Positions 62,056 through 64,000 of a DNA stretch of 64,000 bases are shown here, piece by piece (position 1 is the stretch's first letter; each line of letters starts with the position of its first letter). The notes under the pieces were generated by a model. The model did not search any database and was not told where the DNA came from. It saw only the letters and a program-made list of their open reading frames with translations. Origin of the DNA: a virus (lineage: Duplodnaviria > Caudoviricetes). The stretch lies in the IMG/VR virus record IMGVR_UViG_3300015615_000196, positions 298,604 through 362,603 of that record, one strand, 5' to 3'. Both the position numbers and the translations under genes were made by a program.

Positions 62056-63447
62056 ATGAATCAGAATTTTACATTCGTCAGAAAAATCAAGTTGGGTATT
62101 ATTAATGACACCAAAGAAGGTAAAAATGCTGATTATGAAAGAATGAGAAGCATCCAGTATCATAGCTGGAAACTTGCCAATCGAATAGTACAAGGTCAAT
62201 TCTTCTTACGATTCTTTCCCGAAGTGATACTTTTTAAACACCCCGATACTTATGAACTATACAAAGAGATACAAGGTAGAATAACCAAGATCAGTCAGAT
62301 TAAAAAGAAAACGGATTTGGACAAGGCAGAACTGAAATCCTGCTATGCCCAAATTAAAGACATTCAGAAACAGTTCGAGATTGAAATCGAAGAATACCGT
62401 AGAAATGGGTCAATCCAGAATTTCACGTATGCATTCAACGCTGACGAATACCGTGATCTTATTCCATCTACGGTTCGTGCATCATTGAATCAAAAGGTAT
62501 TCAAAGATTTCAATACCAGATATAAAAACTTCTTGCAAGGTAATGCATCAATTCAAACGTACAAGAAAACGTTGGCCGTCCCTTTTCAAGGGAAAAGTAT
62601 TATTGATCTAAAATTAGAAAAGGAAGGGTTTACTTTTAATTTATTTGGAATTAAGTTCCTGTGCTTGCTTGGTAAGGATGGAAATAATACCAAACACATT
62701 CTCACCCACTTGACAAATAAAACCGATGAATTCAAACTCAATGATTCATCATTCATGTTTAAGGACGGGGAATTGTTCATGAATATGAACTTATCCTCGA
62801 ACGTGGTGAAGGTAAAGAAAAACCCGAATATTGTTGCGGGTATCGATCTTGGTGTTAGTCGCATGGCTACGATGGTCATTCGTGACCGTTCCTCCGATTC
62901 CTCCACCAATTATATCGAACGTAGATTCTTCGGGGATGATTCGTTAATGAAACGTGCGATGTTCTACCAGAACAAAAGATCAAATGTTAATCGTAGCTAC
63001 CTGACCAAAACAGGAAAAGGAAGACTTCATGCAGTTAAATCAAAAAATCAGAATCTTGATAAGTTCGCAAGATTTCGCGATAACTTCAATAAAAAGATTG
63101 CTCATGATATAATACAAAGATGCATTGCAAACAACGTATCGGTTATCGTAATGGAGGATTTAAGTAAAATCGGAGAACTTAATTTCTTTATGAAGAATTG
63201 GCCTTATTTTGATCTTCAAACCAAGATTGAAAACAAAGCCAAAGAATATGGAATTAAGGTTGAGTATGTTGACCCCGCATATACCTCACAAACATGTCCT
63301 GCTTGTGGACATGTGGGTAAAGAAAACAGGGAGATTCAAAAGCACTTTGAATGTAAATCCTGTGGTGTGAAGGGTAATGCTGATGTAATCGGAGCCATAA
63401 ATATTGCCAACAAAATTCCGATTGAATCATTGCAAGTCTCAGTTTAA
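62056..63447 (+). CDS. cas12f: Cas12f-like / TnpB-family RNA-guided nuclease (~463 aa; start reassigned to ATG 62056)
   Basis: RuvC-I AGIDLG, RuvC-II VIVMEDL, WPYFDLQTKIENKA..YGI.V..VDPAYTSQTCPACG, CKSCG zinc ribbon, RuvC-III NADVIGAINIA; directly upstream of a CRISPR array. Confidence 0.85.
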   Translation: MNQNFTFVRKIKLGIINDTKEGKNADYERMRSIQYHSWKLANRIVQGQFFLRFFPEVILFKHPDTYELYKEIQGRITKISQIKKKTDLDKAELKSCYAQIKDIQKQFEIEIEEYRRNGSIQNFTYAFNADEYRDLIPSTVRASLNQKVFKDFNTRYKNFLQGNASIQTYKKTLAVPFQGKSIIDLKLEKEGFTFNLFGIKFLCLLGKDGNNTKHILTHLTNKTDEFKLNDSSFMFKDGELFMNMNLSSNVVKVKKNPNIVAGIDLGVSRMATMVIRDRSSDSSTNYIERRFFGDDSLMKRAMFYQNKRSNVNRSYLTKTGKGRLHAVKSKNQNLDKFARFRDNFNKKIAHDIIQRCIANNVSVIVMEDLSKIGELNFFMKNWPYFDLQTKIENKAKEYGIKVEYVDPAYTSQTCPACGHVGKENREIQKHFECKSCGVKGNADVIGAINIANKIPIESLQVSV

Positions 63448-63499
63448 TTCTGTTATTTTGTTTTAAGAAAATTCGTTCATTGAAATATTATTTTATCCT

Positions 63500-63650
63500 C
63501 TTACCAATTTGGTACGAGAATAAAAAGCGTTAGTTGTGTTTAAATACTCCCGCTTATGGGATGAAACGCAAAGGTGAGGTTGTAACATTGAATAATTATC
63601 TACTATTGTGGTAGATGTTATAACACTCGCTAATACCTTTTTAATTTTTA
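63500..63650 (+). ncRNA. putative tracrRNA
   Basis: Anti-repeat TACCTTTTTAATTT (63634-63647) pairs 13 of 14 with repeat nt 15-28 (two G-U pairs); GTTGTG (63533-63538) complements the repeat 3' end CACAAC; intervening stems. Boundaries approximate. Confidence 0.65.
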
Positions 63651-63697
63651 AAATTGAGTTGAAACGCTCAGATATTCAGAGGATTAATTCAGATTGA

Positions 63698-63996
63698 GTT
63701 GTTGATCTATTGAATTTGAAAGGTAGTCACAACATCGACTATACGTTGACATCCGTGTTAGTGGTTGTTGATCTATTGAATTTGAAAGGTAGTCACAACT
63801 TGACCTTGTTGTTCAAACTAAAGTCAAATGTTGTTGATCTATTGAATTTGAAAGGTAGTCACAACGAGCGTATCAGTATCCATACAGCAATGAAGTTGTT
63901 GATCTATTGAATTTGAAAGGTAGTCACAACTGGATCAATATAGGTCGTTAGGAAAAACATGTTGTTGATCTATTGAATTTGAAAGGTAGTCACAAC
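63698..63996 (+). CRISPR. CRISPR array: 5 identical 36-nt repeats and 4 complete spacers, likely continuing past the window
   Basis: Repeat GTTGTTGATCTATTGAATTTGAAAGGTAGTCACAAC at 63698, 63764, 63830, 63895 and 63961; unique spacers of 30, 30, 29 and 30 nt. Confidence 0.98.
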
Positions 63997-64000
63997 ACAT

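Follow-up and report, generated by a model that had tools for sequence, protein, structure and literature searches.

A Cas12f1-type locus of a giant phage with a CRISPR array in the type VI-B repeat format

Introduction

Does the miniature CRISPR locus of a giant phage consist of parts that belong together, or has a nuclease been set beside an array borrowed from the host? The question is raised by the stretch of DNA analysed here (hereafter the window), the final 64 kb of a 362,603-bp circular phage record, at whose 3' end a short type V nuclease gene is followed by an array that resembles those of Bacteroidota type VI-B and type II-C systems. A preliminary description had read the locus as a TnpB-like nuclease paired with a captured host-type array, open to new spacers through the Cas1-Cas2 of the host, and had suggested that its crRNAs might also load or titrate the host's Cas13b or Cas9.

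Part of the background to this proposal is published. In Flavobacterium columnare the VI-B array gains spacers through the Cas1 of the II-C locus; a GTTGT end motif is common to the VI-B and II-C arrays of this bacterium, and transcription of the VI-B array proceeds from its leader inwards (PMC8092290). The preliminary description had pointed to such acquisition in trans in Flavobacterium. Huge phages usually carry CRISPR systems that lack adaptation genes, and some phages devoid of effectors or interference genes have been noted to possess host-like repeats (PMC7162821).

Results

Extent and growth of the array

At the 3' end of the window the array comprises five identical copies of a 36-nt repeat that begins GTTGTTGATC and terminates TTTGAAAGGTAGTCACAAC, with spacers 1–4 of 30, 30, 29 and 30 nt, so that the repeat length, the complementary GTTG...CAAC ends and the 29–30-nt spacers given in the preliminary description are all confirmed. 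The array begins 250 nt past the cas12f stop codon, and its features are as follows:

63654–63697, + strand: leader, from the tracrRNA to the first repeat, with the 3' end AGATTGA
63698–63733, 63764–63799, 63830–63865, 63895–63930 and 63961–63996, + strand: CRISPR repeats 1–5
63698–64000, + strand: start of the array (five repeats and four spacers), which runs on past the record junction to record position ~900

The continuation follows from the ends of the record, which share a 48-nt direct repeat (window 63953–64000, equal to record 1–48) in which one CRISPR repeat lies between 8 nt of a spacer and 4 nt of the one that follows; because this terminal repeat is itself a CRISPR unit, the array resumes at record position 9 and extends to ~900. 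We considered the 48-nt terminal repeat as a packaging feature and rejected this, as it represents an assembly overlap inside the array. The complete array holds 13 full repeats and ~6 truncated or degenerate units at its far end (~19 units), and the spacers separating intact units measure 29–31 nt, a regularity of repeat and spacer that is beyond chance.

The repeats are arranged in blocks of variants, the nine gene-proximal copies reading CTATTGA (CTTTTGA in one of them) and the next four CTATAGA. Such blocks are expected when the leader-proximal repeat is copied, and they therefore indicate past growth of the array at its gene-proximal end; the decayed units, which retain the 3' half of the repeat only, lie at the distal end and thus also place the growing end on the leader side, next to the gene. 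The leader shows no conservation between the window and L010, an orthologous locus whose protein is 56% identical to the window nuclease. Its junction with the first repeat, AGATTGA, is like the CATTGAG or CTTTGAG found before the first repeat in three array-bearing Bacteroidota loci, two of which adjoin Cas13b; we count this likeness as weak evidence.

The adjoining nuclease is of type V-F1

The gene that precedes the array encodes a small nuclease with a recognizable active site:

62056–63447, + strand: cas12f, 463 aa, type V-F1 (V-U3 branch), with a RuvC D/E/D triad and a CxxC..CxxC zinc ribbon

Comparison of the 463-aa protein with PADLOC profiles returned full-length matches to both Cas12u3 (3e-83) and Cas12f (2e-82), accompanied by matches to guided_TnpB in NCBIfam (5e-52) and to Cas12f1-like_TNB and OrfB_IS605 in Pfam. 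The residues D264, E367 and D443 and the four cysteines of the zinc ribbon are invariant across eight orthologues. Close homologues were few, with seven proteins at 54–84% identity in a large protein collection and the next ones at ~30%, and scans of IMG/VR and JGI metagenome proteins for closer relatives yielded loci at ~30% identity only. An identity as a transposon TnpB was rejected, since an array and a tracrRNA adjoin the gene; cas12f is also the only gene of the phage with a TNB domain.

Type V-F1 Cas12f carries out PAM-dependent cutting of dsDNA as a dimer on one guide. The phage locus displays an effector within 400–700 aa that has the RuvC triad and the zinc ribbon, an adjoining array and, in silico, a tracrRNA anti-repeat. 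The closest solved structure is CnCas12f1 (8HR5; 5.6e-36), and other solved relatives are Al3Cas12f, OsCas12f and AsCas12f. With these members of type V-F1 (formerly V-U3) the locus shares the small TnpB-derived nuclease with its triad and ribbon, a tracrRNA between gene and array, a split anti-repeat and the lack of adaptation genes; it differs from them in a protein that is at most ~30% identical to characterised members, in a VI-B-family repeat with 30-nt spacers and in its carrier, a 362-kb phage.

A covarying candidate tracrRNA connects nuclease and array

The interval between the gene and the leader is occupied by a candidate tracrRNA and a promoter-like motif:

63472–63490, + strand: promoter-like motif TTCGTTCATTGAAATATTA, before the tracrRNA, near-invariant in five orthologous loci
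63491–63653, + strand: candidate tracrRNA, between gene and array, conserved and covarying
63491–63525, + strand: 5' hairpin of the candidate tracrRNA, formed in all five loci from unrelated sequences
63533–63538: unpaired GTTGTG, enclosed together with a TCCC/GGGA hairpin by a GCGTT/AACGC stem of the candidate tracrRNA, after which a long stem follows
63634–63647, + strand: single-stranded 3' tail TACCTTTTTAATTT of the candidate tracrRNA

The motif TTCGTTCATTGAAATATTA presumably functions as a promoter. It is present as GTTCTTTGAAATA in the V-F1 locus of a Bacteroidota genome (G090, L073:8941-11143), which encodes a Cas12f of 485 aa that is 29% identical to the window nuclease and a tracrRNA whose core is homologous to that of the phage. 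The region of the candidate tracrRNA folds with a z-score of −4.1, contains the stretch AAGCGTTAGTTGTG that is invariant in the five orthologous loci and, in the comparison of the window with L010, retains pairing at 8 of 32 predicted pairs that are altered on both sides. The contigs of P0005, P0006 and P0009 stop within the tracrRNA.

Two conserved segments of the candidate tracrRNA are complementary to the repeat. The single-stranded GTTGTG matches repeat nt 31–36, that is, its last six bases; for the 3' tail, 13 of 14 positions pair with repeat nt 15–28 (partly by direct reading of the sequences), an arrangement which we take to be the split anti-repeat layout of Cas12f guide RNAs. Furthermore, repeat end and anti-repeat have covaried, with TGAAAC/GTTTCA in the bacterial locus as opposed to CACAAC/GTTGTG in the phage, and the phage locus and its relatives provide a natural case of a tracrRNA adjusting to an altered repeat. 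Given a conserved tracrRNA with a split anti-repeat to the 3' half of the repeat, the nuclease is predicted to use the adjoining array. Judged from this conservation, the array appears to be the own working part of a Cas12f system and not a foreign array parked beside a nuclease, and the wording ‘rather than Cas12f arrays' of the preliminary description is not upheld for an array that is served by a co-evolved tracrRNA.

The module proposed here would thus be composed of a Cas12f1-type nuclease, a tracrRNA and a CRISPR array of ~19 units on a giant phage. Transcription of the array would start at the end nearest the nuclease gene, the last ~22 nt of each repeat would pair with the tracrRNA at two sites to form the 5' handle of the guide, and the spacer would direct the cutting of dsDNA, the targets being most likely competing phages or plasmids. 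In practical terms, the locus offers a compact Cas12f together with a short tracrRNA.

In the tracrRNAs of distant V-F1 loci (L039:5100-5170, L134:4470-4500, L040:5140-5170 and L042:7270-7290), CTCG(G/A)(T/C)AAGGT is found where the phage tracrRNA has CTCGCTAATACCTTT, that is, one element in the opposite sense, and the point at which tracrRNA and crRNA are split may have shifted between the distant V-F1 loci and the phage.

Likeness to type VI-B and type II arrays

The 3' half of the repeat was sought with the pattern TTTGRARGGTARTCACAAC, allowing three purine choices, in one genome per species of ~186,000 prokaryote species. Arrays carrying it were found in Bacteroidota only, and all of them have 36-nt repeats and 30-nt spacers. 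Cas13b adjoins five of the nine Bacteroidota arrays (Bergeyella, Chryseobacterium, Sphingobacterium, a Bacteroidales genome and Capnocytophaga; E 1e-143 to 1e-266), and one further array adjoins a protein of 1,083 aa in which each end bears HEPN motifs like those of Cas13b. The window repeat is identical to four Cas13b repeats at 23–29 of 36 positions, compared with 25–34 of 36 among those four, and its best score against Cas13b repeats reaches z = 10.3 relative to shuffles; these values are inflated, since the pattern by which the comparison set had been collected came from the window repeat itself, so that agreement in the 3' half is to some degree presupposed. The repeat of the bacterial V-F1 locus (G090) is free of this bias, as the locus was found by protein search, and it is likewise significantly similar to Cas13b repeats (z = 6.7) and separated by 30-nt spacers.

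The best VI-B match to the window repeat is that of Sphingobacterium hungaricum (29/36, with 30-nt spacers), and the predicted hairpin of the window repeat is that of VI-B repeats. The window array accordingly displays the elements of the VI-B format, namely a 36-nt repeat, GTTG...CAAC ends, an internal hairpin and 30-nt spacers, while the 5' half of its repeat, aside from the GTTG start, has no significant likeness to any VI-B repeat (7/13, P ~0.06). As for a single well-known system, Bergeyella zoohelcum Cas13b resembles the phage locus in a 36-nt repeat ending GGTAATCACAAC, in 30-nt spacers, in an array that lies behind the effector gene and is oriented like it, and in distal decay, but its effector is a 1,227-aa HEPN RNase that operates without a tracrRNA, and its repeat is identical to the window repeat at 23 of 36 positions.

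A similar format was observed for type II. One of the genomes with a VI-B array, a Chryseobacterium, also has a type II locus encoding a Cas9 of 1,455 aa and Cas1, in which 30-nt spacers alternate with a 47-nt repeat that has GTTGTGAATTGC at its start and TGATTAGTCACAAC at its end. The window repeat begins GTTGTTGATCTA and ends AAGGTAGTCACAAC and matches it at both ends, GTTGT and TAGTCACAAC being common to the two, so that the repeat ends and spacer length of the type II-C format (GTTGT...CACAAC, 30 nt) are found in the window array as well. The geometry that the preliminary description had assigned to Bacteroidota VI-B and II-C arrays is therefore supported on both counts, by the 23–29 identities to the four Cas13b repeats and by the ends and spacers of the Chryseobacterium Cas9-Cas1 repeat.

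The repeat format follows the host phylum

To place this likeness, we compared the repeats of related nucleases. Cas12f relatives at ~30% identity in settings other than Bacteroidota, some of them among Bacillus-phage-type genes, have unrelated repeats of 29–32 nt and spacers of ~33–38 nt, which bears out the remark in the preliminary description that characterised Cas12f arrays usually have longer spacers; the repeats of these outside V-F1 relatives score against Cas13b repeats at chance level (z ~1.5). When viral contigs were scanned for a pair of neighbouring repeat ends, at least eight further phage contigs with the repeat family and 30-nt spacers came to light. In six of these contigs, representing four distinct arrays, the array is adjoined by a V-U4-like nuclease of 408–431 aa, which aligns with the window nuclease in the RuvC part only (23% identity). 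The V-U4-like loci carry anti-repeat-like segments of their own, and their repeats share an identical 19-nt stretch with VI-B repeats. The repeat of the orthologous locus L010 is identical at 22–24 of 29 positions to V-U4-like phage repeats and a VI-B-like bacterial repeat (13–14 of the first 17 nt), as against 18 of 29 to the window repeat.

Since the repeat format stands beside two unrelated kinds of type V nuclease and beside a bacterial V-F1 nuclease, and is absent from the outside Cas12f relatives, it follows the host phylum and not the nuclease lineage. The pairing of nuclease and array was nevertheless inherited by the phage, because the format and a matching tracrRNA are common to the orthologous phage loci (54–84% identity) and to the bacterial V-F1 locus (29%, with 30-nt spacers). 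As far as sequence comparison can tell, the pairing in this phage is thus old and not a recent capture. Borrowing and inheritance would both have played a part, each at a different depth of time. Of the interpretation put forward in the preliminary description, the likeness to VI-B and type II arrays holds, and the two parts that do not are the ‘captured' array and its separation from Cas12f arrays.

Adaptation genes, spacer acquisition and spacer targets

The preliminary description had raised the question of whether the phage encodes its own cas1 and cas2 elsewhere; no profile match to cas1, cas2, cas9 or cas13b was found anywhere in the 362-kb record. The phage record is thereby without the cas9, cas1 and cas2 that stand by type II-C arrays and without the cas13b of a VI-B locus or genome, the adjoining effector being Cas12f. 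Repeat decoys acting as RNA anti-CRISPRs would be looked for in phages without a cognate effector; the present phage has both an effector and a tracrRNA of its own.

The phage may depend on the type II Cas1-Cas2 of the host for new spacers, an inference that fits these data together with the published cases. The host of the giant phage is probably a member of the Bacteroidota; a search for T9SS tail domains gave zero matches in the phage and in the control genomes alike. Two observations on related arrays show that they can be maintained with no turnover. The VI-B array of S. hungaricum (G003, array in L021) has at least 16 repeats in a genome with no Cas1 match, so an array of this kind can be kept where no integrase is resident. 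The IMG/VR contigs L089, L110 and L112, which come from different samples, carry one V-U4-like nuclease and an identical three-spacer array, from which it follows that arrays of this kind can be static.

BLAST comparison of 18 spacers with the remainder of the phage genome and with every locus retrieved produced chance matches of 12–16 nt only, no spacer target was found among GenBank phages, and exact scans of IMG/VR with spacers 1, 3, 4 and 5 revealed no target. For spacer 2, a 20-nt match was present in three IMG/VR contigs that are related to one another and rich in GC; the match stops exactly where the search pattern ends (21/30) and has no T-rich flank, and it was taken as chance. The 126 spacers of related phage and bacterial arrays had no match to this phage or to each other. 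As no protospacer was found, there were no flanks from which to read a PAM for Cas12f or an acquisition motif of the Cas9 type.

Discussion

The explanation that we consider probable is a self-contained Cas12f1-type module whose VI-B-family format has been kept by reliance on the type II Cas1-Cas2 of the phylum, the pairing of nuclease and array being old and inherited. The point reaches beyond the present locus, as one array format is common to the type II, the VI-B and two kinds of miniature type V systems of Bacteroidota and their phages; according to this explanation, those without adaptation genes would rely on the phylum's type II Cas1-Cas2. The dependence of VI-B and type V arrays on this integrase would then be the most likely reason why their repeats and spacer length stay compatible with it.

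An account by inheritance alone, which we regard as possible but doubtful, holds that the repeat descended with the nuclease lineage, in part from the scaffold RNA, that its VI-B likeness is ancient or incidental and without function, and that the array no longer acquires spacers. It draws on the format that the orthologues (54–84%) share with one another and partly with the bacterial V-F1 locus (29%) alongside a homologous tracrRNA, on the AAGGTA element of distant V-F1 tracrRNAs, whose complement occupies the corresponding position in the phage tracrRNA, and on the identical arrays of the three contigs of another phage, which show no spacer turnover. Descent of this kind does not readily account for the presence of the same repeat family, including the 19-nt stretch identical to VI-B repeats, in the unrelated V-U4-like group, nor for the 5' halves of the repeats, which are untouched by the tracrRNA and do not track the nuclease tree. 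Moreover, the blocks of repeat variants point to at least nine polarised additions, and 30-nt spacers fit type II and VI-B arrays but not those of the outside relatives. The polarity of growth also weighs against an exchange of units between the phage array and host VI-B arrays by recombination through the shared repeat instead of by Cas1-Cas2, since a patchy pattern is not what the array presents; no phage spacer matched the spacers of ~10 bacterial arrays, and identity over the full repeat is only 64–81%. Although up to 20 of the last 21 repeat nt are shared with host VI-B repeats, and internal deletions between repeats indicate that recombination within the phage array does occur, we hold such exchange to be very unlikely.

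The remaining alternatives involve the Cas13b of the host. The array might mainly feed guides to this enzyme or act as a decoy for it, with its adjacency to Cas12f being secondary. The full 36-nt repeat indeed lies in the range over which natural Cas13b repeats vary, and the hairpin predicted for it is the same as theirs; transcription is predicted in the sense that Cas13b would need, and the 5' half of the repeat has been kept even though the tracrRNA does not pair with it. However, the anti-repeats of the tracrRNA are conserved and covary with the repeat, the decayed units keep only the 3' half, which is the Cas12f handle, and the active site of the nuclease is intact; a main role in the service or jamming of Cas13b is accordingly very unlikely. 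A combined use, in which one phage transcript would provide for two effectors, seems to us unlikely: the 3' half of a repeat with the following spacer would give Cas12f guides, a spacer with the following full 36-nt repeat would give Cas13b-type guides, and the host VI-B system would be reprogrammed or saturated while the host type II Cas1-Cas2 supplied the spacers.

Trans-adaptation and phage arrays that resemble host arrays are already published. The F. columnare VI-B locus (Hoikkala et al. 2021, PMC8092290) is comparable in having an adaptation-less array with a 36-nt repeat and a GTTGT end shared with type II arrays of the phylum, but there a single bacterial chromosome holds the two loci and a cas1 mutant served to demonstrate acquisition, whereas here the array is carried by a phage, the effector is a DNA-cutting type V enzyme and acquisition is a matter of inference. 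The huge-phage CRISPR systems (Al-Shayeb et al. 2020, PMC7162821) are comparable in their phage-borne type V-F/V-U effectors, compact arrays and lack of Cas1, Cas2 and Cas4; in contrast, the published host-like repeats belong to phages without interference genes, whereas the present phage has its own effector and tracrRNA and a repeat that matches another host type (VI-B). A cross-type case of this kind, in which a phage carries effector and tracrRNA together with the repeat of another host type, was not found in the literature searched.

If a shared integrase explains the common format, spacer capture in Bacteroidota would be a common service for type II, VI-B and miniature type V systems, phage-borne ones included. 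Phages would in that event draw on the adaptation enzymes of their hosts for their own armament, and this would explain the source of spacers for many phage CRISPR systems without Cas1-Cas2.

Further arrays of the repeat family and neighbouring loci

The searches also returned several loci of interest in their own right. One 222-kb viral contig (L124, L081 and L086) and one 128-kb contig (L094 and L119) each carry two or three separate arrays of the repeat family, and some of the ORFs adjoining the arrays of these large phage contigs, with 330–420 aa, match no defence profile. At L041:4950-5500, dozens of very short repeat units of the TTTGAAG type, separated by short spacers, come after a Cas12f-like gene (30% identity); this guide array is of a very different format. 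In Bergeyella (L019) and Capnocytophaga (L034), units sharing about the last 20 nt of the repeat continue past the regular VI-B array at irregular distances of 80–500 nt.

Finally, the 1,083-aa protein mentioned above (L035:4215-7463, + strand) carries HEPN-like R(N)xxxH motifs close to its two termini and has no match to Cas13b, Pfam or NCBIfam profiles. It is flanked by two VI-B-like arrays (L035:7550-7651 and L037:803-904) on one 10.6-kb contig of a Bacteroidota MAG and adjoins two genes for CBASS cGAS-like cyclases, which makes it a candidate for a divergent effector of type VI-B-like kind with a possible tie to cyclic-nucleotide signalling.
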